Virus record (IMG/VR): IMGVR_UViG_3300035034_003552
Source: a virus
Taxonomy: Duplodnaviria; Heunggongvirae; Uroviricota; Caudoviricetes
Length of the DNA: 64,000 nt
Direction: 5' to 3' (one strand)
The position numbers were made by a program, and so were the translations under genes. Of this stretch, positions 9,045 to 60,746 are shown one piece after another (the stretch's first letter is position 1; each line of letters begins with the position of its first letter). The notes below the pieces were generated by a model, which worked only from the letters and a program-made list of their open reading frames with translations, searched no databases and was not told where the DNA came from.

Positions 9045-9075
9045 CTAAAGCAGGGTAAAACCTGCTTTAGTATTT
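9045..9075 (+). terminator. Intrinsic terminator or attenuator hairpin between the 7814 and 9095 genes.
   Basis: 10-bp perfect stem 'ctaaagcagg'...'cctgctttag' with a 6-nt loop, followed by 'tattt'. Confidence 0.5.
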
Positions 9076-22109: not shown

Positions 22110-22122
22110 AAGAGGTGGAATA

Positions 22123-22557
22123 ATGTACTTACTTATTAATACAGATAAAGAAACTATTTATGGGTTCGCATCAAGCAAACCTAATACAGATGACTTAGAG
22201 AAAAATAATTGTACAGCAGTAAAATATACAGGAGATAAAGATTATTCATTGCTTAAGCCGGATATAACTGATGGTGTAGTAATGGATGTAATAGACAAAA
22301 CTGAATACTTTATGAGTGCCGATGATCAGCAGATAAATGCCGGTACGGATACTACTTATATTAAAGCTGCAGTAAAAGATGGTGACAGTGACAAAGTTGA
22401 GTTTATAGTAAATGATGAATCAGTTGGTGTTACCATGACAACCGACACTGTTGCCGAACTTGAATTTAGTGCTGATAATCCAGGTATTTATACTATAACA
22501 GCAAAAAGTGTTGATAAAAGATACTTAAGCAACTCAATAAACATAGAGGTGATATAG
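22123..22557 (+). CDS. Hypothetical small protein following a fiber gene; possible fiber assembly or chaperone protein.
   Basis: SD 'agaggtgg'; 144 aa. Its position and size resemble those of the 26341 gene, which also follows a fiber gene. Confidence 0.55.
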   Translation: MYLLINTDKETIYGFASSKPNTDDLEKNNCTAVKYTGDKDYSLLKPDITDGVVMDVIDKTEYFMSADDQQINAGTDTTYIKAAVKDGDSDKVEFIVNDESVGVTMTTDTVAELEFSADNPGIYTITAKSVDKRYLSNSINIEVI

Positions 22558-22558
22558 T

Positions 22559-22675
22559 ATGTCAGATCTTAAATTTAATGGGACAAAGCCAAAAGAAAAA
22601 GAACCGGCAGAAAAGATAAAAGACCTCGAAGCTAGAATAGACAAGCTAGAAGAAATAATAAAAGAAAACGGATAG
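22559..22675 (+). CDS. Small (38 aa) coiled-coil peptide ORF, below the ORF-track cutoff.
   Basis: SD 'agaggtga' then ATG at 22559. It ends exactly where the next gene's SD begins. 'MSDLKFNGTKPKEKEPAEKIKDLEARIDKLEEIIKENG'. Confidence 0.35.
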   Translation: MSDLKFNGTKPKEKEPAEKIKDLEARIDKLEEIIKENG

Positions 22676-22685
22676 GAGGCAGTAA

Positions 22686-23516
22686 ATGGGATACTTAGAT
22701 GAAGTACCACAGTGGAATCCACCATCACTCAAAAAACATGCCCCAACACCTAAGAAAATAGAAGAAGGTTGGAATATAGACGAAAGACCGCCGGCTGGAT
22801 ATTTTAACTGGTTTTGGAGTGTTACAGCAAAAGCAATACAAGTATTTGATACTCACGATCACGACTACAAATATATAATCAGAGGCGAAGATGGAGCTAT
22901 CTCAGAAGAAATGCTCCAGTCAAACATTATAAATAACGAACATCTCTCAATGGATTTTAACTTAGAAGAGTACGGGGTAGCAGATACAGCACACGATCAT
23001 GATTCCAAGTACCTAAATAAAAATGGTGACACAATGTCTGGATCTTTAACCATAGGGAGAAATGCATTGCTTAAAAAGGTAACAAGTAACTCAGTAGAAA
23101 CCATAATAAGCAGTGATGGAAGAGTCTGGAATGCAGTATATAACGATATAGCTGAGATGTATAAAGCAGATAAATGGCTTAAAGAAAATCAAGTTCTTGT
23201 CTGGGATGGAGAAAAAGTCACAACGACTACTGAGAAAGAAGATAAAAGAGTCATTGGTGTTTATTCTGATACCTACGCTCAATGCCTGGGAGGACAACCC
23301 GATAGTAAGGGTGTAGTACCAATAGGAATAAGCGGAAAAGTAAAGGTCAAAGTGAAAGGACCTGTTAGCTCAGGTGATCTATTAACTACATCTGAAATAC
23401 CGGGAGTTGCTGTTAAATCAGAAAACAAAGAATTAGGAACAATATTCGGAAAGGCAATGACAGATGTCAAGGAAGACAAGATTAAAATTATATGGGCTTT
23501 CATAGCCGTAATATAA
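22686..23516 (+). CDS. Tail fiber paralog: N-terminal adaptor motif, HxH repeats, C-terminal domain of type I (shared with the 26799 gene).
   Basis: 'GWNIDERPPAGYFNWFWSVT...THDHDYKY', 'AHDHDSKYLNKNGDTMSGSLTI'. The C-terminal roughly 150 aa 'GRVWNAVYNDIAEMY...VIGVYSDTYAQCLGGQPDSKGVVPIGISGKVKVKVKGPV' aligns with 26799 'GRVWNSVYNDLAEMF...VVGVYSDTFAQCYGGQPDDEGAVPIGIAGRVDVKIKGPI'. Confidence 0.75.
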   Translation: MGYLDEVPQWNPPSLKKHAPTPKKIEEGWNIDERPPAGYFNWFWSVTAKAIQVFDTHDHDYKYIIRGEDGAISEEMLQSNIINNEHLSMDFNLEEYGVADTAHDHDSKYLNKNGDTMSGSLTIGRNALLKKVTSNSVETIISSDGRVWNAVYNDIAEMYKADKWLKENQVLVWDGEKVTTTTEKEDKRVIGVYSDTYAQCLGGQPDSKGVVPIGISGKVKVKVKGPVSSGDLLTTSEIPGVAVKSENKELGTIFGKAMTDVKEDKIKIIWAFIAVI

Positions 23517-23528
23517 GGAGGTAAATAA

Positions 23529-24335
23529 ATGTCAATAACAAATAAAATTCCAATTTGGAATTCTCCAAATAGTAAGATGGTTAATCCTCCAAGCTCGAAG
23601 ATAAATAGTGGTTGGAATCCCGGGGAAAAACCGCCAGCATACTATTTCAACTGGTTCTGGACCGCAACATCAAAAGCACTTGAAGAAATAAACAATCACT
23701 TACATGATTCAAGGTATGCAAGAATAAGCCACAACCACAATCAAAGTGATTTAGATATCAGCACTCACGAGAATAAAGACTCGGGAATACACGGAGTTGG
23801 AGCAAGTGAGATAGAAAGCACTTACGGAGCCCAGCAAAAAGCTGACATAGCAGAAAATAGGGCAAAAAATTACGCAGAAGATTTAGCAAGTGATGCAGGT
23901 GTCCCAACAGGAGCTGTAATAATGTGGACAGGGTCTACTTCTAATATACCAAACGGTTGGACTCTATGTAATGGTAATAATGGAGCACCAAATCTACAGA
24001 ATAGATTCGTAGTAGGAGCTGGAGCTTCTTATAGTGTAGGCAATACTGGTGGTGCTATATCAGTAAGACTGACAGAAGAACATATGCCATCACACTCCCA
24101 TACGGGTAACACTAGTTCAGGTGGAAATCACAGACATAGGATGAGCGCTAGATCGTGGACACATGCTGGTTTTAATCATATAAATGCTGCTGACACTACA
24201 GGTGCTAGCGGTAGTGTCTATACAGACTACAATGGGGCTCACTCTCATTCCTTTACGACTAGAACCACTGGTGGAGATCAGAGTCACGAAAACAGACCGC
24301 CATATTACGCTTTAGCATATATTATGAAATTATAA
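23529..24335 (+). CDS. Tail fiber with N-terminal adaptor motif and C-terminal phage tail-collar domain.
   Basis: 'GWNPGEKPPAYYFNWFWTAT...NHLHDSRYAR'. C-terminal 'GAVIMWTGSTSNIPNGWTLCNGNNGAPNLQNRFVVGAG...ENRPPYYALAYIMKL' matches the tail-collar signature (xIPxGWxLCNGxxGTPDLRxRFxVGAG...eNrPPYxALxYII). Confidence 0.8.
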   Translation: MSITNKIPIWNSPNSKMVNPPSSKINSGWNPGEKPPAYYFNWFWTATSKALEEINNHLHDSRYARISHNHNQSDLDISTHENKDSGIHGVGASEIESTYGAQQKADIAENRAKNYAEDLASDAGVPTGAVIMWTGSTSNIPNGWTLCNGNNGAPNLQNRFVVGAGASYSVGNTGGAISVRLTEEHMPSHSHTGNTSSGGNHRHRMSARSWTHAGFNHINAADTTGASGSVYTDYNGAHSHSFTTRTTGGDQSHENRPPYYALAYIMKL

Positions 24336-40095: not shown

Positions 40096-40100
40096 GCTAT

Positions 40101-40170
40101 AACCCCCCTCCTATCAATGGTTTTCAGCCTTTCCTGCCATTAGTTAGGGGGGTATTTTTATCTATTTTTA
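40101..40170 (+). terminator. Strong rho-independent terminator closing the structural and lysis transcription unit.
   Basis: Long imperfect hairpin 'acccccctcctatcaatgg...ccattagttaggggggt' followed by 'atttttatctattttt'. Confidence 0.7.
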
Positions 40171-40220
40171 ATGCGAGCAGAAATGGGAAGTCGTATTTCA
40201 TAATTATATTCGGTTATCTG

Positions 40221-40249
40221 TTGACAGCATTACATTTGAGTGTTATAAT
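40221..40249 (+). promoter_or_regulatory. Consensus sigma-A/sigma-70-type promoter (TTGACA-17-TATAAT) for the replication/recombination module.
   Basis: 'ttgaca' 40221-40226, 17-nt spacer, 'tataat' 40244-40249. The ORF-track entry 40221..41093 starts at this 'ttgaca' and is an artefact. Confidence 0.7.
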
Positions 40250-40325
40250 TAAGTTGCAGTTAAGAAAGAGGTACCGGCGTTACAGTATATTAAACGCTAT
40301 AAAAAATTATAAGGAGGTAACGCTG

Positions 40326-41093
40326 ATGAAAACTACAGAAATTATGAAAGCACAACAGCCAGAAAGACTGAAAGAGGTAATTGAACAAAAGCTTAACCCT
40401 AACTGGATTAAGCAGAGAAAAGGTAGAGGCGGAATGATGTTAGATTACTTGGAAGGACACAGAGTAATCTCAATCCTAAATGACGCTACAGATTATAAGT
40501 GGAGTTTTGAGATTATTAGTAAAGAAACAATCTCCCCGAAAAAAGGTAAAGAGTTTATCGAGGTACTCGGTAAGCTAACAATACCAGGAGTCGGTGTAAA
40601 GCAGGCTTACGGTACAAAGGAACTATATGGTGACCAGAGTCAGGCAGCCAAAGCAGCTACCACTGACGCCCTTAAGAAGGCAGCCAGTATGGCAGGAGTC
40701 GGACTTGAGTTGTGGTCGGATGATGAGCCAGCAAATGATTACAATAATAACAGCAATGGCAACAGCAATTACAACAACAATGGTAATGGTGCCAGCAATG
40801 GTAACAGCAATTACAATAATAACAACAGCCAGAGCAATAGTAATAATTCTAGCAAATCAAGTAATAACGGCAGTAGTACCAAGACATGGGCTCAACCAGA
40901 AATAGTAAAAGCCGCAAACGCACTCAAGGAACACAAAAAAGCATTGGGAATTAAGAAGAACAAAGAACTTAACTCCTATGTTGATGAATGGTCAGATGGT
41001 GAACTGAGTAGTTGGAGTGATATAACACCAGCAAATATACAAGATTTCAACAAGTGGTTAGAAAACAATAAGATTCAAAAGCTGTCAGCCTAA
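40326..41093 (+). CDS. Rad52/Rad22-family (Sak-like) single-strand annealing protein with an Asn/Ser-rich low-complexity linker.
   Basis: SD 'aaggaggt'. 'KQRKGRGGMMLDYLEGHRVISILNDATDYKWSFEI...GVGVKQAYGTKELYGD...AAKAATTDALKKAASMAGVGLELW' parallels the Rad52 N-terminal core (xxGGxxxxYIEGxxVIxLAN...GYxWS...KxAxTDALKRA...FGxxLG). 'NNNSNGNSNYNNNGNGASNGNSNYNNNNSQSNSNNSSKSSNNGSS' tail. Confidence 0.75.
   Translation: MKTTEIMKAQQPERLKEVIEQKLNPNWIKQRKGRGGMMLDYLEGHRVISILNDATDYKWSFEIISKETISPKKGKEFIEVLGKLTIPGVGVKQAYGTKELYGDQSQAAKAATTDALKKAASMAGVGLELWSDDEPANDYNNNSNGNSNYNNNGNGASNGNSNYNNNNSQSNSNNSSKSSNNGSSTKTWAQPEIVKAANALKEHKKALGIKKNKELNSYVDEWSDGELSSWSDITPANIQDFNKWLENNKIQKLSA
40738..40880 (+). repeat. AAT/AGC-rich imperfect tandem repeats of about 24 nt encoding the N/S-rich segment of the Rad52-like protein.
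   Basis: 'aatggcaacagcaattacaacaac' / 'aatggtaacagcaattacaataat' near-duplicates read directly from the sequence. They generate the spurious out-of-frame ORF 40627..40905. Confidence 0.55.
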
Positions 41094-41162
41094 ATACTAA
41101 GATCCCTGCTAGTACCTATCCGTACTGGCGGGGATTAATTCTTAATGGTAAGGAGATTTAAG

Positions 41163-41489
41163 ATGAAATACTGTAAAGATTGTTCCAACTTTAATATAAG
41201 CATACGCACTTGTTCGATCATGTTAGTAGATTTATACCAGCATATTGAACAGGATGATAAAATAAATGATTTATTAAAAGATAAAATAGATACTTATGAT
41301 TTCATGAAGTTTAAAGTAGACAATGCTTTAGAAGAAAGCAATATGACAGGGATTGACCCTGAACAGTATCTACAAGGAGAAATAGTTCATGGTGGTGGCC
41401 AGTTAAATAAAGATAACGCCTGTCCATTCTACCAAAAAGATATACTTAAAAGCTCAATTAATCAGATAAAGAGCATCTTTTCTTCTTAG
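41163..41489 (+). CDS. Small Cys-containing hypothetical protein.
   Basis: SD 'aaggag' then ATG 41163 ('MKYCKDCSNFN...'); CxxC near the N-terminus and further Cys residues. Confidence 0.5.
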   Translation: MKYCKDCSNFNISIRTCSIMLVDLYQHIEQDDKINDLLKDKIDTYDFMKFKVDNALEESNMTGIDPEQYLQGEIVHGGGQLNKDNACPFYQKDILKSSINQIKSIFSS

Positions 41490-41516
41490 TTTTAAAGATA
41501 GATCGGAGGAGATATC

Positions 41517-42200
41517 ATGGGTTCCAAAGTAGATTTAATGGTATATTTTGTTGAGAGTATGTTTGAAAGTAAACCTACTCAGGAGCAGAAAAACAATATC
41601 ATAAATACTATAAGCAACTTACTGCAAAATGGTTATTCAGATAGAGATATTAAATTGGTAATAGATAAACATATAAGGAAGTTTGGAGTAGAAAAAGATA
41701 TTACACAGGTTTTTGATGACAGGCACAAAAAGCCAACAGACGATGTCAACTTGATAGATCCTAACAAATTTTACTATCATTCGTCCCTGAGAATAGCACC
41801 AGGGCCACCTACAACGAAATACAATCCTGAAACGCGAGAGATAACTAGACGCTATGAAGACTACTTTTTAGAAATGAAAGCTAGTTATACGATAAAGGAT
41901 TTAGTTAAATATTATTGTGAGACTATGAAAATCAAAATGAATAAGCACACTATTAGTAGATACCATTCTGTATTTGAGAATTTACTTAGTTCTTACAGTT
42001 TAGACAGGATACTTTTTACGATAGATGCAGCGGCTGAAATAAGACAGTCAAACCATCTGAATCCATTGGTAAACCCATTTGGACTAACAGATTATATGCA
42101 TACAGGTGAAGAAAACTACAGTCTCAAGGTTAATTTAAGTAAACAGGAAGGTGTTGATGAAATTGTCTATCGCAAAAGACCCCCAATATTCGATGATTGA
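41517..42200 (+). CDS. Hypothetical protein in the replication module.
   Basis: SD 'ggaggag'; 227 aa. Confidence 0.6.
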   Translation: MGSKVDLMVYFVESMFESKPTQEQKNNIINTISNLLQNGYSDRDIKLVIDKHIRKFGVEKDITQVFDDRHKKPTDDVNLIDPNKFYYHSSLRIAPGPPTTKYNPETREITRRYEDYFLEMKASYTIKDLVKYYCETMKIKMNKHTISRYHSVFENLLSSYSLDRILFTIDAAAEIRQSNHLNPLVNPFGLTDYMHTGEENYSLKVNLSKQEGVDEIVYRKRPPIFDD

Positions 42201-43209
42201 GTTTGGATGTCATCTGCCAAATGGGTATTTCAAGCGAGGACAATATATAACATCTGATGACTTACTGGATATGCGCAAGAAGTACAGTAATACAGGAATT
42301 TATACTACAATTTATAGATATTCTAAAGAATTAGAAGAAGAAGACCCCATTTACGGACCATTTTATTTGGACTTCGATGCTGATATGTGGGGCGTCAGCG
42401 ATGATGTAGCAGAAAAGAACTTAAAAAAAGTACAGGAAGACTTAAAACTAGCAATAACTTATTTTGAAGTCATATACAACATACCGAGGGAATATGCCAG
42501 ATGTTACTATTCAGGTAAAAAGGGGGTACATCTGGTTTACCCTGCTGATCTATTCGGGATTAAGCCGAGGGAAGACCTTAATAGAATATTTAAGCTTATA
42601 AAAGATGATGTAAGTAAATATGTCAATCACGACACGATAGATCAAAGAATATATGATAATAAAAGATTATTCAGAGTGCCAAACTCAAGGCACCAGGATA
42701 CAGGACTTTATAAGATACCGGCCAGTCCAGATTTTTTAATAAACAGCTCACTCAAGGAGATAAGAGATAAGGCAAAGATGCCACAGGAGCTTAAAGTTAA
42801 AGAACCCAGGACATTAAGAAAGCCGGCAAAACAGTACAGAGCAGTAGTTGATAAATATGAATACCAGAAAAAAGAGCGGGAAGAAAAGATGAAAAGGTAC
42901 AAAGATAAGCCGTTAAAACACACACCTCCATGTATCGATAACCTATTAGAAGACGGAGCACGAAAGGGCCACCGCAACAATTCGATGGCTGCACTAACAA
43001 GTTTTCTCAAACAGACTGGGTTAACCGAAGAAGAGGTATTCATGAAAATAAAGAAGTGGGGCAAAGAGAAATGTGTTCCACCAATTAATGAAAACGAGAT
43101 AAAAGCGACAGTCCCTTCAGTTTATGGAAGTGAAAAGAACTACGGATGTGCAGCACTAAAGGAACTATCGACTTGTGAAAAGGATAAATGCAAGCTGGTA
43201 AAAGATTAA
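42157..43209 (+). CDS. Archaeo-eukaryotic-primase-type primase-polymerase (PrimPol) with a C-terminal PriCT-1 domain.
   Basis: AEP motifs 'FYLDFD' (DxD), 'GKKGVHLVYP' (sGxGxH), 'RLFRVPNSRHQDTG'. The C-terminal 'GARKGHRNNSMAALTSFLKQTGLTEEEVF' fits PriCT-1 (GxRNxxLxxxA). ATG 42157 after 'aggaaggtg'. Confidence 0.7.
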   Translation: MKLSIAKDPQYSMIEFGCHLPNGYFKRGQYITSDDLLDMRKKYSNTGIYTTIYRYSKELEEEDPIYGPFYLDFDADMWGVSDDVAEKNLKKVQEDLKLAITYFEVIYNIPREYARCYYSGKKGVHLVYPADLFGIKPREDLNRIFKLIKDDVSKYVNHDTIDQRIYDNKRLFRVPNSRHQDTGLYKIPASPDFLINSSLKEIRDKAKMPQELKVKEPRTLRKPAKQYRAVVDKYEYQKKEREEKMKRYKDKPLKHTPPCIDNLLEDGARKGHRNNSMAALTSFLKQTGLTEEEVFMKIKKWGKEKCVPPINENEIKATVPSVYGSEKNYGCAALKELSTCEKDKCKLVKD

Positions 43210-44096
43210 AAAGGATTTTTGTCTTCTATTTCACGCTCAAGTATAGCATCAGTAACATGAGTATAGATCTCTGTTGTAGAGAGATTAGCGTGGCCAAGAA
43301 GTTTCTGTAAGTTTCTGATGTCCATACCGGCTGAGTGATACAGCGTAGCAAAGGTATGACGCAGGCTATGGCTTGATATGTCAGCGTTAAGGCCCATATT
43401 CTTTACCAGCTTTTTTACTATCCAATGGACAGTATGTCGACTGATTCTATTTTTCCTTTTAGAAATGAAGACAGCATCAAGTCTAGTCTTAGGTCTTTTT
43501 TCTAAATACTCTTTAAGTAGCTTGGCAATGTCTTTATTGAGAAAGATGGTACGCTCTTTAGAGCCCTTACCTAAAACTCGAATTACATTCTCATTAAGAC
43601 TCAAATCATTCATATTAAGACCAGTCAGTTCACTTACTCGAAGACCCGCCATGCTCATCAGGCCTATCATGGCCTTGTTTCTCGTATGAAACTCGGTGAA
43701 GGTTTCGTCAACGCCGTCCAAAATAAGCAAAAGCTGTCTCCTAGTAAGGAAGAGAGGTAACTTTTTGCCTCTAGGGGTATGGTAATCAATTTTTTCCATC
43801 GGGTTTGAGCCAATAAGGTCCTCATTGTAGAGGTAAATGAAGAAAGAGTTTAAGGAAGATACTTTCCTGGCCACTGTATAAGGGGAGTTTTCCCTTAGAT
43901 CAGTACAGTGAGAAAGAAAAGATCTAATATCATCCACTTCGAAGTTATCAAGTTTCTTATCAATATGTGATAAAAGGAGCTCGATATCTCGTAAATATTC
44001 TTCAATAGTGGAAGCACTTATATTCTTTTCAACTCTTAACCAGTTCTGCCAGTTGTTAATGATTTTCTTAGCTTCTTTCATGGAAGATTCCTCCAA
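43206..44096 (-). CDS. Xer-like tyrosine recombinase / integrase (XerC/XerD family, 296 aa).
   Basis: 'ARKVSSLNSFFIYLYNEDLIGSNP', 'GLRVSELTGLNMND', 'VLGKGSKERTIFL', 'HSLRHTFATLYHSAGMDIRNLQKLLGHANLSTTEIYTHV' (R...K...HxxR...Y catalytic set). No large N-terminal arm-binding domain. Confidence 0.85.
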   Translation of the reverse strand: MEESSMKEAKKIINNWQNWLRVEKNISASTIEEYLRDIELLLSHIDKKLDNFEVDDIRSFLSHCTDLRENSPYTVARKVSSLNSFFIYLYNEDLIGSNPMEKIDYHTPRGKKLPLFLTRRQLLLILDGVDETFTEFHTRNKAMIGLMSMAGLRVSELTGLNMNDLSLNENVIRVLGKGSKERTIFLNKDIAKLLKEYLEKRPKTRLDAVFISKRKNRISRHTVHWIVKKLVKNMGLNADISSHSLRHTFATLYHSAGMDIRNLQKLLGHANLSTTEIYTHVTDAILEREIEDKNPF

Positions 44097-44128
44097 TTCA
44101 ACAAAATATAGATTTTGTTTAGTTAGAA

Positions 44129-44157
44129 CTCATATTATATATATTTATACGTAAACT
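44129..44157. promoter_or_regulatory. Candidate dif-like Xer recombination site next to the recombinase gene.
   Basis: '...catattatatatatttATACGTAAACT' in the recombinase 5' intergenic region. Its right half resembles the conserved XerD-arm of firmicute dif (ttATGTAAACT), and the centre is TA-rich. Confidence 0.3.
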
Positions 44158-44276
44158 ATTAAAATCCTTTTTTTTAAATCGGGAAATTACTATATTATAG
44201 TTAAACTTGTATTTAATCCCATTCTGCCAAGTTATCTCTGGATTTTGGGACAGAAAAGAAATTTAGGAGGCTTATT

Positions 44277-45389
44277 ATGGAAAATGAACAATCCACAGCA
44301 AATGCTCCAGAACGACATCCACTTGCTGATGATGAACAATTAGCTCCACCACCTGTTGTTGAGGCTAATGATGAAGATTTAGATAATAATTTACCACCAA
44401 TACAGTCAGTTCCACAAGATCAACTTGATGGAATGCCGGATTATATGAAAAATACTTCAATGCTTATCGAGGAGTTTGATAGATATTGTAAAGAAAATCC
44501 TGATGGTGGTTATGTTACAGGATATCAACAGTTAGATGATGCATTAATCGGATTCCAGCCTGGACTACATTTTGTTGCTGGTATGAGTAATGCAGGTAAA
44601 TCCTCTTTTCTACTAAATTTAGCATGGAGTGTCGGACAATCAAACGATAACGCCTATGCTTTATATATAACTTTAGATGATGGAACAAATGACTTACTAC
44701 CAAGAATAGTTGCTATGGAACAGCAAGTACCTATTAATACTGCAAGGTATCCTGGCCGGTATTCAGAGTTTGATAACTTAATGGATGCTCGCGAGGAAGG
44801 TGTGAGAATTCTCTATGATAATGTAGATAAATTTGGAATGATTAATAAAGATTACGGTTGGAACGCCGAGGAGCTTGAGGACTTAGTAAAAGAATTAAGA
44901 ATGCAATTAGCCGCAAGTGGGTCCGGTCGTGACTTATGTATCTTCATTGATAACTTTCACGACCTCTCCTCTGAAAAAATTAGTATTGGTACTGACCAGA
45001 ATGCACGATTCGAACAAGCTGGTGGTGCACTAAAAAACATTTCAGAAACCTATGATGTGCCTATTATAGCAACAGCTGAGTACAAAAAACTCGAAGGTAA
45101 ATCAAGGCCAGTTATCTCAGATATTAAACAGACTGGTAAAACAATCTATCAGGCCAAAACAGTTATGCTATGCTATAACGAAGTTGGAGTTAAAGATGAA
45201 ATGGCCAAGGTCTTTTTTGGTAGAGAGGAACGTGAAAGAAAGAGTCCAATCTTTGAAGTACACATAGCAAAAAATAAAAGTTCAGACATGAAATCCCGTC
45301 TCTTCTATGAGTTTTATGAAGAAATGGCCAGATTTGAAGAAGTACCAAGTCACAGATCTGGATACTACCTAAATATGCTAGGAGGTTGA
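44277..45389 (+). CDS. DnaB-C-terminal-family (RecA-fold) replicative helicase-like ATPase.
   Basis: SD 'aggagg'. 'TGYQQLDDALIGFQPGLHFVAGMSNAGKSSFLLNLA' (Walker A in DnaB-like context), 'LCIFIDNFHDL' (H2-like). Confidence 0.7.
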   Translation: MENEQSTANAPERHPLADDEQLAPPPVVEANDEDLDNNLPPIQSVPQDQLDGMPDYMKNTSMLIEEFDRYCKENPDGGYVTGYQQLDDALIGFQPGLHFVAGMSNAGKSSFLLNLAWSVGQSNDNAYALYITLDDGTNDLLPRIVAMEQQVPINTARYPGRYSEFDNLMDAREEGVRILYDNVDKFGMINKDYGWNAEELEDLVKELRMQLAASGSGRDLCIFIDNFHDLSSEKISIGTDQNARFEQAGGALKNISETYDVPIIATAEYKKLEGKSRPVISDIKQTGKTIYQAKTVMLCYNEVGVKDEMAKVFFGREERERKSPIFEVHIAKNKSSDMKSRLFYEFYEEMARFEEVPSHRSGYYLNMLGG

Positions 45390-45395
45390 TAAACA

Positions 45396-45776
45396 ATGGA
45401 TAAAGACTTACTGATAAGCAGCATGATCCATTCTAAGATGGAACAATTACTTATCCCCTATCAAACAGTCAAGCAAATAAGCAGAAAAACAGATACACCA
45501 GAACAGATAATTGATGATAGAAAAAATAAATACATCCAGAGAAACTTAAGAAAATGGAACAGATTCAGTAAAGAAGAGAAAAAAGAAAAGTCTAGACTGT
45601 GGCAGGAAGAAGCTGCAGTATTGGATTTTTTAAGAACAGAAGGAATCACTGATGGAATTCCAAGTAATATAGAGATTATGTGGCAGCAAAATGAGGAAGG
45701 TCATATAAGCTCCTGTGATGTAAGGCTGTATTATAATAATAAAGCCAAAGGAGGAAATAATGAAGCTATTCGATGA
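45396..45776 (+). CDS. Hypothetical basic protein.
   Basis: SD 'ggagg'; 126 aa. Confidence 0.55.
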   Translation: MDKDLLISSMIHSKMEQLLIPYQTVKQISRKTDTPEQIIDDRKNKYIQRNLRKWNRFSKEEKKEKSRLWQEEAAVLDFLRTEGITDGIPSNIEIMWQQNEEGHISSCDVRLYYNNKAKGGNNEAIR

Positions 45777-46014
45777 TGCTAAAAAGAAGTTAAAGAAACT
45801 TGCTAAATGTGATGAATATTTCCCCTGTCCTCTCTGCTATCGATGTATGGCAGAAAGTAGTAGTAATCCTAAGTGCAGGAAATGCAAGGCGGCCAATTGC
45901 AAGCACAATGATGAGCAACGAGCCAAGCTGATTAAAAGAGATAATTTCAAGCTTAAGGTTAATGATGATGTAAAAGATGCAATAAGGAATATGGAGGATG
46001 ATATATGCAAGTAG
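45760..46014 (+). CDS. Cys-rich zinc-ribbon-like small protein.
   Basis: 'CDEYFPCPLCYRCM...PKCRKCKAANCKH' contains eight or more Cys in CxxC-type spacing. It overlaps both neighbouring genes by 10-17 nt. Confidence 0.5.
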   Translation: MKLFDDAKKKLKKLAKCDEYFPCPLCYRCMAESSSNPKCRKCKAANCKHNDEQRAKLIKRDNFKLKVNDDVKDAIRNMEDDICK

Positions 46015-46568
46015 AATACATAGACACAAAAGGAAGTTGGCGTGAAGTAGCAAATGCCGCCAGAACGACTATCGGCATGGAAGCTGGGGATGGCGAACCC
46101 TCTTCAGAGTGGAAAACAAAGATACTTAAAGCAGAGCACTCTCCTATTCGTCTGCTTAAGATTAGATGGAAGTGGGTTGACTTAAAGAGTTGGATCTCAG
46201 TCCATTTTGTGAGGCACAAATTTGGTGTAGAACACTTCGTAAGAAGTCAGCGTAATGATCGCCAGGACGAATACGACAGGGACTCTGCTCCTCAATCTAC
46301 GCTTATTACTCACGAAGTTGAGGCCAATGCACAGGCTATTATAAACATCTCTCGTAAAAGATTATGCAAGCAGTCACATCCAGAGACGGTTGCAACCTGG
46401 ATAAAGTTTTTAGAAGAAGTAGTAAGGCCTGTAGAGCCAGAGTTGTATGACATTTGTGTAAGGGAATGCATTTATCGCGGGCATTGCACAGAAATGAAAT
46501 CTTGTGGATACTCACAGAGTATGGCCTATTCAGACAGGCTATTCAGCTATGAAATGCTAATACAATAA
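46005..46568 (+). CDS. Flavin-dependent thymidylate synthase (ThyX)-like protein, short form.
   Basis: N-terminal 'VEYIDTKGSWREVANAARTTIG' parallels the ThyX N-terminus (VELVDxxGxDxxxVxAARVS). 'VHFVRHKFGVEHFVRSQRN' resembles the ThyX RHRxxxxxxxSxR(Y) signature with one extra residue. Confidence 0.5.
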   Translation: MQVEYIDTKGSWREVANAARTTIGMEAGDGEPSSEWKTKILKAEHSPIRLLKIRWKWVDLKSWISVHFVRHKFGVEHFVRSQRNDRQDEYDRDSAPQSTLITHEVEANAQAIINISRKRLCKQSHPETVATWIKFLEEVVRPVEPELYDICVRECIYRGHCTEMKSCGYSQSMAYSDRLFSYEMLIQ

Positions 46569-46583
46569 CAGGAGTTGAACTAA

Positions 46584-46763
46584 TTGGCAGACAAGAAAAT
46601 GATGGTGAAAACTTATGATTATAGAGACATGAAGAAAAAAGCTGAAAAGTATCATGATGCCAGAGATCTCTTAACTGAGATTAAGGAATATATAGACGCA
46701 GGGACTATTGATATAGAAAAACCAAGAATAGTTTCTGAGATAAACAAAGTACTACAAAATTAA
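46584..46763 (+). CDS. Small (59 aa) hypothetical ORF filling the 46569-46781 gap; TTG start.
   Basis: SD 'aggag' + 8 nt + TTG; ends at the next gene's SD; not in the ORF track (<60 aa). Confidence 0.35.
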   Translation: MADKKMMVKTYDYRDMKKKAEKYHDARDLLTEIKEYIDAGTIDIEKPRIVSEINKVLQN

Positions 46764-46781
46764 AGGAGGAATTTATTAGTT

Positions 46782-47009
46782 ATGAAATTAGAAGACATTA
46801 AAGGCAAGAAGGTAAACACTATTACTAAGAGTGAGAATGGTGGTTATTGGGTGGTATTAGAAGACGGAAGTGCAGTAGGATTTAGTTCTTCACTTAATAA
46901 GATAGACAGCAACACTTTCCAGACAACAGTTGCAGTAACAAGTGCTCCGCCTAAAGAAGAAACTGAAGCAGTAACACCAGATATGAGTGCAGACGAAATA
47001 AGAAAGTAG
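46782..47009 (+). CDS. Hypothetical small protein.
   Basis: SD 'aaaggagg'; 75 aa. Confidence 0.55.
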   Translation: MKLEDIKGKKVNTITKSENGGYWVVLEDGSAVGFSSSLNKIDSNTFQTTVAVTSAPPKEETEAVTPDMSADEIRK

Positions 47010-47019
47010 GTTAAAGTTC

Positions 47020-47355
47020 ATGCAGGTATTACATGTAGAAATAGATGAAAGCATACCAAGTGACATAGTTAACAGATTCAAAGAGAGCCTTCATGACAGT
47101 ATAGATGATGATATAAGAATAATCGTAAGTCGTGAAGGCAAGTTAAAGGTATCAATGCATGATCCTGATACTTTAGCAGAAATAAAGTCGGACATCAAAG
47201 AGATTAAAGAGTTTCTGTTCAGACCAAGATATATCTTAAATGAAGATTTTGTAGGATATGATGATAATATGGAGTCCTTTGAACCATTTAAGACAGACAA
47301 AATAACACTTGATGATATCAAAATGTTTTTCAAGGAGGATGTAGATGAAATTTGA
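47020..47355 (+). CDS. Hypothetical acidic protein.
   Basis: 111 aa ORF, tightly packed. Confidence 0.5.
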   Translation: MQVLHVEIDESIPSDIVNRFKESLHDSIDDDIRIIVSREGKLKVSMHDPDTLAEIKSDIKEIKEFLFRPRYILNEDFVGYDDNMESFEPFKTDKITLDDIKMFFKEDVDEI

Positions 47356-47554
47356 TGACCTCTCTCCTCTTGAACGCTGGATGGTGAGAGAACTACACGA
47401 ACTAATACATGAAAATAATATCGAACTAAAAGATATAGGAAGTTTAAATAATCTATGGGAAAACAAAGTGATCACAGAAGAAAAAAGAGAACTCTATAGA
47501 GAAGTGTCATCAGACCCAGAACTGCTACATAAAATAATAGAAATTAGGAGGTAA
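47345..47554 (+). CDS. Hypothetical small protein.
   Basis: SD 'aaggagg'; 69 aa; ATGA overlap with the upstream gene. Confidence 0.5.
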   Translation: MKFDDLSPLERWMVRELHELIHENNIELKDIGSLNNLWENKVITEEKRELYREVSSDPELLHKIIEIRR

Positions 47555-47558
47555 CTAA

Positions 47559-47798
47559 ATGGCCAGTCTTGATAAGGTTTTAGGAGATTCAATACAGAAA
47601 GAGATTGACAGGGAGGCTATGAGGGGATCTGAACCAAAAAAAGCGGGTGTCGGGAACGCATTACCCCCTAGCGGAACTCTTAAGTGTAGGTTCTGCAATG
47701 AACCAATCTATGCCAAAGGGAAAAAGAAGGTATATGAGTGGGAGGTTAAATATAGAGCACATGTAAATTGTGCAAAAAAACATGAAGAAAGCAAATAA
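47559..47798 (+). CDS. Small zinc-finger-like protein.
   Basis: SD 'aggagg'; 'CRFCNEPIYAKGKK...YRAHVNCAKKHEE' (CxxC...HxxC). Confidence 0.55.
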   Translation: MASLDKVLGDSIQKEIDREAMRGSEPKKAGVGNALPPSGTLKCRFCNEPIYAKGKKKVYEWEVKYRAHVNCAKKHEESK

Positions 47799-47803
47799 AA
47801 ATT

Positions 47804-47832
47804 AGAGGGGGTTCTCCCCTCTTCTCTTTATT
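47804..47832 (+). terminator. Intrinsic terminator.
   Basis: 'agagggggttctcccctct' hairpin followed by 'tctctttatt'. Confidence 0.6.
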
Positions 47833-47847
47833 AAGGGAGTGTTATCG

Positions 47848-48276
47848 GTGGAAAACTTATTAGGATTATATTACCCGCTGCAGGGAGATACATTCGTATT
47901 CGGTAAGGCTAGATTTTATTCTATGTCAAGTTTAAAACAGAAGGGAAATAGCTTAAACAGCGAAAGTTTTAAGGATACATTTTTTGATTTCTTTGAGAAA
48001 GAAACTAGTTTAGGCAATGATCCATTTATCTTAATTAGAAACGATATAATAAATACAGAGTTTGTACTTGAACTGTTATTTGTAACTGAAGCAGTGAAAA
48101 AAAGTCACGACTCTTATGTCATTAAGGGTGAAATTGAACCACCTAAGATATCTTCTAATAAAGATATAGTCTATTTCGATATGAAAGCAGATGAAAAAAA
48201 CTTTTATAACTTTTTAAAGAACATACCAGAAAAATGTCTGGGAGCAAAGGTAGATCTGAAGGGTGGTAAAGATTGA
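47848..48276 (+). CDS. Hypothetical protein; GTG start.
   Basis: ORF 47839..48276. GTG 47848 is better spaced from 'aaggga' than GTG 47839. Confidence 0.45.
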   Translation: MENLLGLYYPLQGDTFVFGKARFYSMSSLKQKGNSLNSESFKDTFFDFFEKETSLGNDPFILIRNDIINTEFVLELLFVTEAVKKSHDSYVIKGEIEPPKISSNKDIVYFDMKADEKNFYNFLKNIPEKCLGAKVDLKGGKD

Positions 48277-50687: not shown

Positions 50688-50867
50688 ATGCTTGATATCA
50701 AAAACGGTGAAGGGAAAACAGTACTGACACTCAATGATGAAGGGGAACAAGAATCTATCGATGAAGAGTATTTTAATAAAATTAATGAAGAAAATGAAAC
50801 TAACTACAGAGTAAAAGAAAATGGTGAAATTGTAAATATCGAAGAAGAAGAAAACGACAACAACTAA
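50688..50867 (+). CDS. Small, highly acidic protein (59 aa).
   Basis: SD 'ggaggtg' + 5 nt + ATG 50688. The ORF-track entry 50622..50867 probably starts too early. Confidence 0.45.
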   Translation: MLDIKNGEGKTVLTLNDEGEQESIDEEYFNKINEENETNYRVKENGEIVNIEEEENDNN

Positions 50868-50883
50868 AAAGGAGATGAACTAA

Positions 50884-51381
50884 TTGATCATACTAGGAAT
50901 TGACCCATCTACAGTCGCAACAGGGTATTCAGTAATGGAAGCAGACGAAAACGCCTTAGTTCTCTCTCCTACCGTTGTTGAATATGGCAGCATAAACACA
51001 AAGAGAAAGAATCGAATTTCAGATAGAATAACAAAGATTTATGATGAACTTGAAGTATTAATCAATAAATATGAACCAGACATCATAGTATCAGAAGATC
51101 AGTACGGTGGCCATACCAACGCTGTAAAAGCTCTTAGCCAGGTCCGAGGTGCAATAATGATTCTATCATCCAAACATGAACTACCTCTCTTCCTCTTAGC
51201 TCCAAGCCGTGTTAAGAAAGTAGTAACCGGTAAAGGCAACTGCAATAAACAAAAAGTTATTGAGGGCATAAGTGAAAGGTTTGTAATAGATGAAGATGAC
51301 CTTACAAGTGATATGGCAGATGCTATAGGAATAGCCTATACATTTCTAACATTCGAAGAAAACGACCTTAGAACAGCATAA
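50884..51381 (+). CDS. RuvC-family Holliday junction resolvase.
   Basis: SD 'aaaggag'. 'MIILGIDPSTVATGYSVME' is the classic RuvC N-terminal motif; 165 aa; TTG start. Confidence 0.75.
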   Translation: MIILGIDPSTVATGYSVMEADENALVLSPTVVEYGSINTKRKNRISDRITKIYDELEVLINKYEPDIIVSEDQYGGHTNAVKALSQVRGAIMILSSKHELPLFLLAPSRVKKVVTGKGNCNKQKVIEGISERFVIDEDDLTSDMADAIGIAYTFLTFEENDLRTA

Positions 51382-54986: not shown

Positions 54987-55244
54987 ATGGACTTTTCTAA
55001 AGCACTAAGTAAAGTGAAAGAAGGAAAGAAAATCGCAAGAAAAGGCTGGAACGGTAATGGTATGTATATTTATTTTGTCTCTGAAGATAGTTATGAGTCA
55101 AAAACTAAACATGCGAAGAAAGAATTTGGTGATGTAACACCTTATCTGCCATACCTTGCCCTAAAAACTGTTAATGACAAAGTAGTCCCATGGACCGTGA
55201 GTCAGACGGATATCTTATCTGATGATTGGACCGTGTTAGAATAA
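54987..55244 (+). CDS. DUF2829-like small protein (family of the Thoeris anti-defence protein Tad2).
   Basis: SD 'aggagg'. 'ALSKVKEGKKIARKGWNGNGMYIYF' and 'VVPWTVSQTDILSDDWTVLE' match the DUF2829 hallmarks (A(L/I)xxGKK(V/I)xRKGWNGKGM...W.PSQ.D(L/I)LA.DWE) from memory; 85 aa. Confidence 0.5.
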   Translation: MDFSKALSKVKEGKKIARKGWNGNGMYIYFVSEDSYESKTKHAKKEFGDVTPYLPYLALKTVNDKVVPWTVSQTDILSDDWTVLE

Positions 55245-56237: not shown

Positions 56238-58628
56238 ATGCCAATAAACTATATAACTAAAAGAGATAAAGAGATAGTAGAATTTGACAGAGAAAAAATA
56301 GAGATTGCAGTAAATAATGCAGCCGTAGATGGTAATTTCGAGGAGAATCCCTTAGAACTGGGTATAAAGGTCGCAGATATAGTAGTACGAAAACTGCTTC
56401 CTGCTTATGAGGACAATACCAAAAACGATACTCCAACTGTGGAGCTTGTTCAAGATCTTATTGAGGAAACATTGATGGAACTAGGAAACTTCAAGATTGC
56501 TAAAAAGTATATTATATATAGAAGTAAAAGAGAAAGTGTTAGAATCAAGAAAAATAAAGAAGATGATAAAAACTCTATCCTTTCAAATGAATTCCTGAGC
56601 AAGTATAAACACCAGCCTAACCCTTTCCCAACAGAGCTGGGGGAATTTATTTATTATAGAACCTATTCGCGATGGTTGGAAGTAGAACAGCGCCGCGAGT
56701 ATTGGTGGGAAACAGTTAAAAGAGCTGTAGAATACAACTGCTCACTTGCACCAACAACTGAAGAAGAAGCTGAGGAATTATATGATAATGTATATAACTT
56801 AAGAAACTTTGTTGCCGGTCGTACATTATGGACAGCGAGTACAGAATCATCTAAAAAATACGGAATGAGTAACTACAATTGTTCCTTTACAGTTATAGAT
56901 AGCTTTAAGGCATACCAGGACATTTTCTACTTGCTTATGATAGGCAGCGGAACTGGATTTCGCGTTCTTCCTCGTGATGTTGATCATCTGCCTAAGATCA
57001 GAACTAATGTGGAAATTATTCATAAATATTATGACCCTATTGAGAAGGACGAGAGGCGTGAATATACCGACTTCGACTTTGATGGTAGAGTTGCTACTAT
57101 TAATGTTGGAGACTCAAAAGAGGGCTGGATTCAATCCCTAGAGTATTACTTTAAGTTCTTAACCGAACATTCTTATAGACCAGTAAGTAAAATCATCTTT
57201 AATTATGACTCCGTACGCCCGAAAGGCGAGAAACTTAAGACATTTGGTGGTACAGCTTCTGGCCATGGAAGTCTAAAGCGTATGTTTACTAAGGTTGATA
57301 AACTATTACACAGCAAAAGCGATAGAGATACAGACGATCTGGATAGAGTTAAGCTAAAGCCTATTGACGCAATGGATATTTCAAACATTATTGCTGAAAA
57401 TGTAGTTAGTGGTGGAGTAAGACGCTCCTCTCAAATTTGCCTCTTTTCTGCTGATGATAAAGAGATTGCCCAGGCTAAAAGCAAGTTATATGAGCAGGTA
57501 AATGGAGAATGGGTAATAGATGAAGAAATAGCACACCGTCAAATGAGTAATAACAGTATCTTTTACGAAGAAAAGCCAACCAGAGAACAACTTAAATGGC
57601 ATGTTGAGCAAATGCGTTTTAGCGGAGAACCGGGATTCATTAATGCAGAAGAAGGAAGGCGCCGCAGGGAAGATTTTAAAGGTGTAAATCCCTGTGCTGA
57701 GATTCTGTTAGATTCTAAGGGTGTATGTAACTTAACCTCCCTTAATGTAATGAGCTTTGTAGAAGACGGTGAGCTTGATAGAGAAGCCATGATGAACTCA
57801 CAAAGATTATCTGCTAGAGCCGGTTATAGGATGGCCACAATAGAGTTTGAACTGCCAGAATGGGGTTACATCAATGACAGAGATAGACTAATTGGGCTAT
57901 CAGTTACTGGGTGGCAGGATATGGTGAATGCTGCTGACTTAGATAAAGATGAAGAAGCACAACTATTAAGACAGCTAAAAAATGCTGGCCAGGATGCTGC
58001 AGAAGAAATAGCGGCAGAATTAGATGGTAACGAACCTAAGCTAGTCACTACCGTTAAGCCAGAAGGCACTCAGACACAAATGCCTACGGTATCAAGCGGA
58101 CTCCATTATAACCATAGTGCATATTATTTAAGAAGAGTTAGAATTTCTGCTTCTGATCCGCTGGCCCGGGTGTGTGAAGAATTGGATTATCCAGTACACC
58201 CTGAAACCGGTCAGGATCCTGACAATCCAGAAACACTAGTCATAGAATTCCCAGTACGCGCTCCAGAAGGCAAAGTCAAGGATGACGTTGGAGCCCTAGA
58301 ACAGTTAGAAACCTACAAGATGTTTATGAAAAACTATGTTGATCATAATGCTTCGATCACTGTTCATGTCAAGGATGACGAATGGGAAGATGTAGAAGAA
58401 TGGTTATGGGAAAACTGGGAATATACAGTTGGTATCTCCTTTCTTTCTTATAATGACAGCTTCTATGAACTAATGCCTTATGAGGAAATTACCGAAGAAG
58501 AATACTTAGATAGAGCAGAAAAAATGAAAGAGTTTAAGCCCGGTCTAGTTGCTAAGTATGAAACTGAACAGCTTGAGAGAGAGGTTGAGGGTAGTTCCTG
58601 TGAGACTGGAGCCTGTCCGATCAGATAA
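56238..58628 (+). CDS. nrdJ: Ribonucleotide reductase, class II (adenosylcobalamin-dependent, NrdJ-type), with an N-terminal ATP-cone-like region.
   Basis: SD 'aagggag'. N-terminal 'ITKRDKEIVEFDREKIEIAVNNAAVDG' (ATP-cone-like), 'NPCAEILLDSKGVCNLTSLNV' (class II active-site Cys/Asn motif NPCxEIxL...CNLxSxN), C-terminal 'SSCETGACPI' redox Cys pair; 796 aa. Confidence 0.8.
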   Translation: MPINYITKRDKEIVEFDREKIEIAVNNAAVDGNFEENPLELGIKVADIVVRKLLPAYEDNTKNDTPTVELVQDLIEETLMELGNFKIAKKYIIYRSKRESVRIKKNKEDDKNSILSNEFLSKYKHQPNPFPTELGEFIYYRTYSRWLEVEQRREYWWETVKRAVEYNCSLAPTTEEEAEELYDNVYNLRNFVAGRTLWTASTESSKKYGMSNYNCSFTVIDSFKAYQDIFYLLMIGSGTGFRVLPRDVDHLPKIRTNVEIIHKYYDPIEKDERREYTDFDFDGRVATINVGDSKEGWIQSLEYYFKFLTEHSYRPVSKIIFNYDSVRPKGEKLKTFGGTASGHGSLKRMFTKVDKLLHSKSDRDTDDLDRVKLKPIDAMDISNIIAENVVSGGVRRSSQICLFSADDKEIAQAKSKLYEQVNGEWVIDEEIAHRQMSNNSIFYEEKPTREQLKWHVEQMRFSGEPGFINAEEGRRRREDFKGVNPCAEILLDSKGVCNLTSLNVMSFVEDGELDREAMMNSQRLSARAGYRMATIEFELPEWGYINDRDRLIGLSVTGWQDMVNAADLDKDEEAQLLRQLKNAGQDAAEEIAAELDGNEPKLVTTVKPEGTQTQMPTVSSGLHYNHSAYYLRRVRISASDPLARVCEELDYPVHPETGQDPDNPETLVIEFPVRAPEGKVKDDVGALEQLETYKMFMKNYVDHNASITVHVKDDEWEDVEEWLWENWEYTVGISFLSYNDSFYELMPYEEITEEEYLDRAEKMKEFKPGLVAKYETEQLEREVEGSSCETGACPIR

Positions 58629-60353: not shown

Positions 60354-60746
60354 TCACTCTCCATATATTTCTTTTATAGATATCTTTAACATCTGAATAG
60401 CTTCTTTAAATATAGGATCATATTTTTTCTTCTGCTCCTTGTAGTAATCTCTACCAGTAGGTGTTATTCTATAAAACTTCTTACTATTTACCATTTCGTC
60501 TTCTTTATAATAACTTAAGTAACCCTGGTTGGCCAATCTTTTAAGTATCGGGTATACACTACCTGAGGAAGGGCTCCAGTCCGATACTTCTTCAAATTCT
60601 TGCTCCATCCACTCCATCATCTCTGCTCCGTACATTTCTGCCTTACGATTAACCAAATAATGAAGTATAAAGAGTCTAATGAGTCCAGAAGTACTTATCT
60701 TTGCCGGCTGCAACAGAAATCTGTTGTAAGTATTCCTATTAGTCAT
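60354..60746 (-). CDS. PadR-family transcriptional regulator.
   Basis: 'LIRLFILHYLVNRKAEMYGAEMMEWMEQEFEEVSDWSPSSGSVYPILKRLANQGYL' matches the PadR winged-helix consensus (...GYEI...xxxxGxLYPxLxRLExxGxL). Confidence 0.7.
   Translation of the reverse strand: MTNRNTYNRFLLQPAKISTSGLIRLFILHYLVNRKAEMYGAEMMEWMEQEFEEVSDWSPSSGSVYPILKRLANQGYLSYYKEDEMVNSKKFYRITPTGRDYYKEQKKKYDPIFKEAIQMLKISIKEIYGE

Follow-up and report, generated by a model that had tools for sequence, protein, structure and literature searches.

The stretch of uncultured phage DNA analysed here, IMG/VR record IMGVR_UViG_3300035034_003552 (64,000 nucleotides in all, hereafter the window), carries a gene for a Xer-family tyrosine recombinase between its primase and helicase genes, together with a 28-bp palindrome beside that gene which, to judge by comparison with related phages, is probably the target of the enzyme. 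We tentatively read gene and palindrome as a single-recombinase module complete in itself, comparable to XerS/difSL or Cre/loxP, which would reduce circular or plasmid forms of the genome to monomers and would regulate itself, an explanation to which we give somewhat less than an even chance. The features of the locus are collected in Table 1.

The recombinase is read from an ATG at 44081 preceded by a GGAGG ribosome-binding site (RBS), in an open reading frame (ORF) that extends, with a TTG start, to 44096. Its membership of the tyrosine recombinase superfamily was clear, the PF00589 match (Table 1) standing far above the cut-off of 27.1 bits and the active-site residues being present; PF02899 corresponds to its N-terminal SAM-like domain. 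The catalytic residues R, K, HxxR, H and Y all aligned to those of Escherichia coli XerD, with the segments AGLRVSEL, GKGSKER, HSLRHTF, LGH and IYTHV falling on XerD catalytic positions, and the same residues were kept in orthologues of 63% and 45% identity. XerD was also the best match in the PDB (1a0p, E=1e-38). In NCBIfam, the scores for XerC (TIGR02224; 237.6 bits versus a cut-off of 335.15), XerD (TIGR02225; 233.2 versus 329.6) and XerS (120.3 versus 267) were below threshold, and that for XerA narrowly missed it (210.1 versus 220), while a genuine chromosomal XerC (P0002) reached 345.5 bits in the same run; the XerH structure was matched at E=2e-20. Outside the phage clade, the nearest relatives were cellular XerC proteins of 36-41% identity, one of them in a dprA-topA-xerC context.

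Pfam detected in the 291 residues only the SAM-like core-binding and catalytic domains, and no arm-binding domain. A tblastn search of the window revealed no second tyrosine recombinase, and a single one was called at the junction in each relative, so that in the window and at the junction loci the enzyme stands alone and not as one of an XerC/XerD pair. According to the first-pass annotation, the window has a single tyrosine recombinase, Xer-like and encoded on the strand opposite to the primase and helicase genes that enclose it, and the PF00589 match, the XerD alignment and the tblastn search bear it out. As read from the sequence, the C-terminus, THVTDAILEREIEDKNPF, is devoid of the RQ..QQ residues through which XerD contacts FtsK (reviewed in PMC5357621), and coupling of the recombinase to FtsK therefore appears unlikely. 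The gene is under purifying selection: in the comparison with the orthologue of the relative L002, the ratio of nonsynonymous to synonymous substitution rates (dN/dS) was 0.14, with a dS of ~2, neutral sites between these phages being saturated.

The palindrome begins one base from the RBS, and a looser palindrome spans 44092-44127. It is imperfect overall, its arms being complementary at 9 of 11 positions, with the inner 7 bp perfect. All three recombinase-bearing lineages contained it (3/3), and it was absent from L109, a close sister lineage without recombinase, and from ~47 further loci of the lineage. A conserved 11-6-11 palindrome is present 1 bp past the RBS and only where the gene occurs, a candidate for the adjoining site that single-recombinase modules have. 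Across the three lineages 1 of the 22 arm positions was changed, whereas the centre reads TATAGA, TGTGTA or TGTTCA; three of the four variable positions of the 28-mer fall within the central 6 bp (hypergeometric P=0.022). The window and the L002 clade were identical at 25 of 28 positions, compared with 25-59% identity in other true intergenic regions and 63.6% over the genomes as a whole. With L110 the figure was 24 of 28, and the remaining intergenic region was not alignable.

Searches that tolerated 5-6 mismatches in the 22 arm bases and spacers of 5-8 bp found the palindrome in a single copy, both in the window and in each relative locus. Half-site-like matches (13) were scattered over the window, and no repeated half-sites were clustered around the module. 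An inversion or excision switch was considered and ruled out within the sequence examined, no second copy of the site being present in the window or in the relative loci. The palindrome was also the best match in the window to E. coli dif (19/28); this likeness is one of layout, not of specific sequence. In reverse complement it agreed with Firmicute dif at 18 of 28 positions by our own count, the top scores of the window against that reference being 19. As a separate observation, one further 11-6-11 palindrome of the window, and no more, has an inner stem without mismatch; it lies at 9044-9071, a perfect 11-bp inverted repeat (ACTAAAGCAGG gtaaaa CCTGCTTTAGT) directly 3' of the ORF at 7814-9022 and probably an intrinsic terminator.

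Relatives were collected from IMG/VR with an alignment-based primase query, a single-protein primase query having returned none; the scan yielded 48 lineage loci, on contigs of 112-264 kb. The recombinase occurred in three lineages only, always at the same position: the window, the clade of L002, L003, L004 and L108 (63% identity), and L110 (45% identity). None of ~47 other distinct lineage loci had a tyrosine recombinase within 5 kb of the primase-helicase pair. Because primase and helicase are normally adjacent in the lineage, the recombinase is a clade-specific insert that stands outside the replication core. The earlier description of it as embedded in that core is right as to its place between the two genes and not as to its belonging there. 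In L109, a 67-aa ORF occupies the junction instead of the recombinase. The helicase of L109 is closer to that of the window than is the helicase of L110 (76% versus 68% identity). The cassette must therefore have been in this small clade for long, with one loss or more since. Taken by itself, the primase-helicase junction is an insertion hot spot, found empty, with one or two small ORFs, with a 1,057-aa ORF (pCBJ) or with the recombinase cassette (L009-L014, L055-L098).

The window is part of a ~200-kb uncultured phage of the lineage of Bacillus phage 0305phi8-36, a lineage of jumbo phages. Its structural proteins and primase showed 30-39% identity to those of the Bacillus phages 0305phi8-36, KLEB27-3, Edson and WH1 and of Moorella phage MTATph1, and a DNA similarity search with positions 40100-48000 gave no match among 50,697 phage records. 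The closest relative is a 202,621-bp ENA contig (L108). Its first base lies inside the ribonucleotide reductase (RNR) gene and its other end ~3 kb past the last fetched genes (Band_7 and Tad2-like), which would put its two ends alike in the RNR region; a circular map is therefore probable, for a genome of ~200 kb. A homologue of a right-arm gene carried a label assigning it to a Bacillota metagenome-assembled genome. Transcription in the window runs on the + strand nearly throughout up to ~58.8 kb and on the - strand beyond. In the 0305phi8-36 lineage two genome arms converge mid-genome (PMC2147016), and the strand switch of the window shows the same convergence. The location of the candidate site 14.7 kb from this switch in strand and GC skew was not used as evidence for a terminus-like site, given that the skew tracks the direction of transcription.

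Primase homologues were found on 22 large non-mobilizable Firmicute plasmids, and one of these, pBtic235, has been described experimentally as an inducible plasmid-prophage (PMC6199540). Two other plasmids with a primase homologue carry maintenance-type genes: ParM, Rep and an FtsK-like gene in pCBJ, a C. baratii plasmid-prophage, and ParM in pG9842_140. We take the 'chromosomal' BtI1 region of PMC2147016 to be the plasmid pBtic235 of PMC6199540, a reading of our own that comes from no tool result.

In the proposed module, recombinase dimers would bind both of the near-symmetric palindrome arms. A pair of sites, arranged as direct repeats in a genome dimer, multimer or concatemer, would then synapse, and cleavage and strand exchange across the 6-bp centre would restore unit-length circles, without the help of FtsK. 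Cre/loxP brings about the same for the P1 plasmid prophage, and XerS/difSL, XerH/difH and XerA/dif for chromosomes. The position of the best predicted promoter (Table 1) would place the candidate site in the 5' untranslated region of the recombinase gene, between the -10 box and the RBS, and recombinase bound there would also repress its own gene. The L002 clade keeps the -10 region, ATATTATATAT, which in L110 is not alignable.

A stronger version of the same idea is that these phages captured a cellular-type Xer/dif module, in a jumbo myovirus lineage otherwise known from virulent, terminal-repeat phages, and now use it as an FtsK-independent, self-regulating 'phage dif'. We consider this version possible and hold it with less confidence than the module as such. 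If it were true, a ~200-kb genome would be kept monomeric in a circular or plasmid-prophage stage, the clade would consist of cryptic phage-plasmids, and a compact recombinase system (291 aa plus a 28-bp site), unrelated to Cre, would exist in natural variants differing only in the centre. A working module would provide a natural example of a large phage with its own dif-like site and Xer-type enzyme. It would also hint that some uncultured phages of the 0305phi8-36 lineage exist for part of their time as circular plasmids instead of being exclusively virulent, and its small recombinase/site pair, with three centre variants, might furnish independent, non-cross-reacting tools for genome engineering. 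Simple tyrosine recombinases encoded by phages, with a core site next to the gene, are already known, and the replication genes around it are ordinary for the lineage.

Several observations weigh against the resolution module. Palindromes of this quality numbered 16 in the window and 9.6 in shuffled sequence, and those with the inner 7 bp perfect 2 and 1.2, respectively; the palindrome alone is statistically not unusual, and the case for it is built on its conservation, its position and its co-occurrence with the gene. The pattern of conserved arms around a changing centre is compatible with an operator, too, or with an RNA hairpin whose loop varies, and a circular map also arises from terminal redundancy. 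Partition, Rep and repressor genes were not seen in the window or in the fetched parts of its relatives, so that a plasmid stage of the recombinase-bearing clade is deduced solely from distant relatives. Among these, a recombinase of this type is not regularly present: pG9842_140 had no Xer-like gene in the 82 of 140 kb fetched. In pCBJ, a tyrosine recombinase is encoded at the turn between the two arms (L104 2700-3724, record 102700-103724), preceded at a distance of ~55 bp by an inverted repeat of 15 bp without mismatch (AAATTAGACTAATCA aa TGATTAGTCTAATTT). This enzyme is 24% identical to that of the window and has substitutions at catalytic positions, the first R being replaced by K and both H by N; as a parallel to the module it was set aside as weak support for these two reasons.

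The recombinase might instead be a lysogeny integrase and the palindrome the core of its attP, with a chromosomal attB that has similar arms and the same centre. We regard this as unlikely, and as less likely than a resolution module. The best PHROG matches of the recombinase are 'integrase' families (phrog_1, E=4e-57), and many records of mycobacteriophages and Gordonia phages match it. Temperate phages have simple Xer-like integrases without an arm-binding domain, in line with the PDB match to Gp33 (5vfz, E=2e-20). In addition, attP usually adjoins int, and a lone opposite-strand gene with its own predicted promoter inside a lytic operon has the pattern of a lysogeny gene. Against integration, phage DNA was found on both sides in all seven clade contigs that span the site (L002, L003, L004, L108, L110 and the window-identical L001 and L029). 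The three crossover centres on near-identical arms are the opposite of what a conserved host target predicts, and would suit a site whose sole partners are copies of itself. If the promoter prediction is right, integration here would moreover sever the recombinase gene from its own promoter, and no integrated member of the lineage is known.

Searches for a host junction were likewise negative. An attB with the same arms and centre was not found in metagenome and genome collections, a weak result in that a single pattern was used and 20 exact arm bases were required. The arm pattern gave no matches in IMG/VR, 31 in metagenomes (3 of them the phage clade itself, the others with unrelated flanks and centres) and 9 chance matches in unrelated phyla in a genome collection. 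Such a search could detect neither a diverged attB nor one matching the conserved block at 44210-44261, a limit that counts against the module. Exact-protein look-ups with the window recombinase, the RNR and one right-arm gene matched no record. That with the helicase returned only a 2.7-kb contig, identical to the window and broken within the recombinase gene, and another contig begins within the helicase gene; no alternative junction at the recombinase site was seen in the contigs from these look-ups. The window contained no tRNA or tmRNA, and the recombinase-helicase intergenic region no fragment of a tRNA or known RNA gene; Rfam gave no match at E<=1 and only noise at E<=10, and blastn of the intergenic region against plasmids only AT-rich noise. 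Nor was a repressor or partition gene found among the scanned ORFs neighbouring the recombinase, as the first-pass annotation had remarked of repressor/cro pairs and partition genes.

To a purely regulatory palindrome, serving as operator or as an RBS-masking hairpin in the 5' leader, with the recombinase acting on another site, possibly outside the window or in the host, we assign a similarly low probability. Its position between the predicted -10 box and the RBS would suit such a role, as would the ordinary statistics of the palindrome when taken alone. The minus-strand RNA is predicted to fold into a hairpin whose outer stem pairs with the RBS (-8.3 kcal/mol, z=-1.6). This pairing recurs in all three alleles, in L110 through different flanking sequence, which is a further point to the disadvantage of the module, and the restriction of variation to four central bases is loop-like. 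On the other hand, the 8-bp inner stem is all A-T and invariant, without compensatory changes despite saturated synonymous sites, which argues for sequence-specific recognition by a protein and not for an RNA fold. Core sites of tyrosine recombinases have the same 11-6-11 layout and asymmetric TnnnnA centre as the palindrome, which, as noted above, gave the best E. coli dif match of the window. No other conserved candidate site travels with the gene, nothing else being conserved in the intergenic region of L110. A regulatory role and a recombination site are in any case compatible.

That the cassette is a selfish passenger at an insertion-tolerant junction, with no function in the life cycle of the phage, seems improbable. 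The junction is certainly variable (empty, with small ORFs or with the 1,057-aa ORF, the gap ranging from -23 to 3,495 bp), and the absence of the cassette from L109, which falls inside the clade by helicase identity, indicates that its loss is not lethal. Against this, the cassette has been kept down to 45% identity with catalytic residues and site intact and with the low dN/dS given above. It has neither flanking repeats nor a second site, the 3' end of the recombinase gene overlaps the primase stop codon by 4 bp, and the base composition of the gene is that of its neighbours.

The first-pass annotation had placed a dif-like site elsewhere in the 5' intergenic region of the recombinase, at 44129-44157, for its resemblance to the conserved XerD arm of Firmicute dif sites. 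At 44147-44157 there is indeed a GTAAACT, and 9 of 11 positions agree with that arm. Over the full 28-mer (44130-44157), 15 of 28 positions agreed with Bacillus subtilis dif, a score equalled or bettered at 665 of 127,946 window positions. Thirty positions reached 9/11 for the arm, GTAAACT occurs nine times in the window, and the left arm agreed at 5 of 11 positions by our count. The corresponding stretch reads TACATTTATCA, unrelated, in the closest relatives, and the motif is absent in L110. It overlies the -35 hexamer and spacer of the best predicted recombinase promoter, and the conserved palindrome lies 7 bp to its left. With that many equal or better positions and no conservation in relatives, the motif is rejected and taken as a chance match. 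A degenerate second copy, TTATAGTTAAACT, of its GTAAACT-containing 13-mer was seen at 44195-44207, 50 bp downstream of the first, mostly inside a 32-nt stretch (44175-44206) that no relative shares with the window; the copy has the look of a local duplication and suggests fast-evolving filler. Mimicry of the host dif by 44129-44157, whether for dif-targeted integration or for resolution by the host XerCD, is on these grounds very improbable, an attP of that kind being expected to be closer to host dif than chance, which was not seen with the B. subtilis and E. coli references.

Of what had been proposed for this region, then, a palindrome built like dif is indeed present and conserved, at another place than the motif cited, and targeting of the host dif found no supporting evidence. 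Dimer resolution is plausible, and so is a link to phage-plasmids, with primase homologues on the 22 plasmids, pBtic235 included. The case carries a warning for annotation, in that an AT-rich 'dif-like' motif may arise by chance alone, only a few bases from the element that is truly conserved.

Table 1. Features of the primase-recombinase-helicase region (window coordinates)
Feature	Position	Strand	Basis
orf180 homologue, first gene of the left-arm block (orf180, primase, helicase, RecB-like nuclease)	41517..42200	+	32% identity to 0305phi8-36 gp180, E=4e-31
AEP-type primase with C-terminal PriCT-1/PriL-like domain	42151..43209	+	Pfam, PHROG, invariant motifs
Xer-family 'simple' tyrosine recombinase, 291 aa	43206..44081	-	PF00589 155.8 bits, PF02899 50.6 bits
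Recombinase Shine-Dalgarno sequence GGAGG, 8 nt upstream of ATG 44081	44090..44094	-	Read from sequence; invariant in 5/5 aligned junctions
Candidate core recombination site, 11-6-11, ATTCAACAAAA TATAGA TTTTGTTTAGT	44096..44123	.	Conserved inverted repeat beside recombinase
'dif-like' 28-mer of the first-pass annotation, rejected as site	44130..44157	.	Chance-level match, not conserved
Best sigma-70-like recombinase promoter (predicted), -35 TTAATA 44162-44157, -10 TATAAT 44139-44134	44134..44162	-	Promoter scan, 10/12 matches
Conserved block ...CCCATTCTGCCAAGTTA..TGGATTTTGGGACAGAA... just upstream of helicase RBS	44210..44261	+	88.5% identical to L002 vs 64% background
Replicative helicase, DnaB_C domain only, acidic N-terminal extension of ~70 aa	44277..45389	+	DnaB_C 73.3 bits

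The genes on either side of the cassette are those expected of the lineage, in which orf180, primase, helicase and recB are conserved left-arm replication genes (Hardies et al., PMC2147016). The orf180 homologue itself had no Pfam or PHROG match. The archaeo-eukaryotic primase (AEP) was recognized by PriCT_1 (24.1 bits, cut-off 21.1) and PF04104, a PriL-like domain (39.8 bits, above threshold), while DNA_primase_S remained below its cut-off at 20.5 bits. It matched the PHROG 'primase' at E=4e-56 and was 36-39% identical to the primases of 0305phi8-36 and KLEB27-3. In an alignment of nine sequences the AEP motifs DxD, SGxxGxH and D..R were invariant, as were D74/D76, S121-G122-G125-H127 and the cysteines C261/C333/C342/C347. 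These four C-terminal cysteines, together with PF04104 (eukaryotic/archaeal primase large subunit), suggest that the AEP catalytic domain is joined to a PriL-like domain of Fe-S type. The helicase matched the PHROG DnaB-like helicase at E=2e-31.

Primase and helicase are directly adjacent in 0305phi8-36, where the pair (gp181/gp182) was described by Hardies et al. (PMC2147016), and in MTATph1. In ~47 other lineage loci the helicase lies 3' of the primase in the same orientation. With its AEP motifs, PriCT-type C-terminus and DnaB-type helicase downstream, the primase belongs with the gp181-like primases of the 0305phi8-36 lineage. The identification of an AEP primase with PriCT-1 and of a DnaB-C-like helicase is confirmed by Pfam, PHROG and the invariant motifs, the polymerase part of the label 'PrimPol' staying putative. 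The pair had also been taken as a sign of plasmid-like or self-primed replication, which does not follow, as it is the conserved left-arm pair throughout the lineage, virulent members included.

Between recombinase and helicase, the block at 44210-44261 is unique in the window and showed no significant RNA fold (z=+0.8). Its 3' part is kept in the recombinase-less L109, and the block was not seen in the recombinase-bearing L110, from which it follows that it is not part of the recombinase module; it probably serves the helicase operon as promoter or leader. Its readings as attP core, as RNA element and as accessory sequence were considered and dropped, on account of the missing fold, its retention in L109 and its absence from L110.

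Other observations were made elsewhere in the window and its relatives. An 85-aa ORF at 54987-55244 (+) is Tad2-like (anti-Thoeris; PF11195, 91.5 bits versus a cut-off of 25, E=5e-26), and a homologue occupies the same place in the 202.6-kb relative (L108 20759-21031). The RNR of the window is a single ORF of 796 aa (56238-58628); in relatives (L111 14668-18954; L112 14668-15732) the gene is split, both by a LAGLIDADG intein domain and by a separate gene for an HNH/NUMOD4 endonuclease, and such an interrupted RNR region likely explains the assembly break of the 202.6-kb contig. Three tail-fibre-like genes lie within ~3 kb at 21336-24335 (+) (21336-22109, 22686-23516 and 23529-24335). They share an N-terminal segment (phrog_2126, phrog_7389), differ in their C-termini and could represent alternatives for receptor binding. 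The same upstream context, AGGAGnTGAACTAATTG, was seen for two genes with TTG starts, at 46568-46590 and 50866-50890; it is kept in L002 and may be a common translation-initiation cassette. The right arm starts with a PadR/RTP-like winged-helix protein at 60354-60746 (-) (57 bits), and in L112 a protein of 295 aa that contains a DnaA_N domain is encoded at 854-1741, on the opposite strand and ~9 kb upstream of the gene used as right-arm query; both proteins are candidate regulators or replication factors.

Among known systems, integrases of the lambda type, with an arm-binding domain and a complex attP bearing arm sites, are unlike the recombinase and site of the window. The elements known as integrative mobile elements exploiting Xer (IMEX), such as CTXphi, VGJphi and TLCphi, are mobile elements or phages with a tie to Xer recombination (PMC5357621). 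The phage of the window differs from them in that it encodes its own enzyme and in that the proposed dif mimic is a chance match. IMEX elements, for their part, use the host XerCD through a dif-like attP that imitates the host dif, and are not known to carry an Xer of their own. Simple phage integrases of the Brujita gp33 type fall in the same small size class, have no arm-binding domain and keep attP beside the gene. The Gp33 of PDB entry 5vfz is presumably this integrase of mycobacteriophage Brujita, and its similarity to the window recombinase is weaker than that of XerD or XerA. The simple integrases differ further, since here no attB, immunity gene or host junction was found and the crossover centre varies by lineage.

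The XerC/XerD-dif system supplied the best sequence and structure matches and shares the catalytic residues and the 28-bp 11-6-11 layout with its TnnnnA centre. It consists, however, of two paralogues, whereas the window has one recombinase, ~100 bits below the XerC and XerD cut-offs; the near-symmetric arms of the window site, unlike those of dif, suggest that one protein binds both, and the site is not significantly similar to Firmicute dif. The Cre/loxP system of phage P1 offers a functional analogy, being a simple tyrosine recombinase of a phage that acts on one short inverted-repeat site with an asymmetric spacer. Cre/loxP monomerises dimers of the P1 plasmid-prophage and can circularise incoming DNA. 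At the thresholds used, Cre has no detectable sequence relationship to the window recombinase (the PDB matches at E<=1e-5 did not include it), loxP has the form 13-8-13 and perfect arms where the window site is 11-6-11 with imperfect ones, and P1 is a plasmid-prophage, while a plasmid stage of the window phage is only surmised.

The closest counterparts in layout would be the single-recombinase Xer systems (XerS/difSL, XerH/difH and some XerA/dif), in which the site typically lies beside the gene and the two form one module (PMC5357621). XerS and XerH are chromosomal proteins of ~355 aa, in contrast to the phage-borne enzyme of 291 aa, which scores below every family cut-off, and the centre of difSL measures 11 bp against 6 bp in the window site. 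The arrangement of one recombinase and an adjacent imperfect palindrome, here a candidate site, is nevertheless that of XerS/difSL of streptococci and lactococci, XerH/difH of Helicobacter and Campylobacter and XerA/dif of archaea, and the arms of difSL and difH, as quoted in PMC5357621, resemble those of the window site, with runs of A facing runs of T (...CAAAA-N6-TTTTG...).

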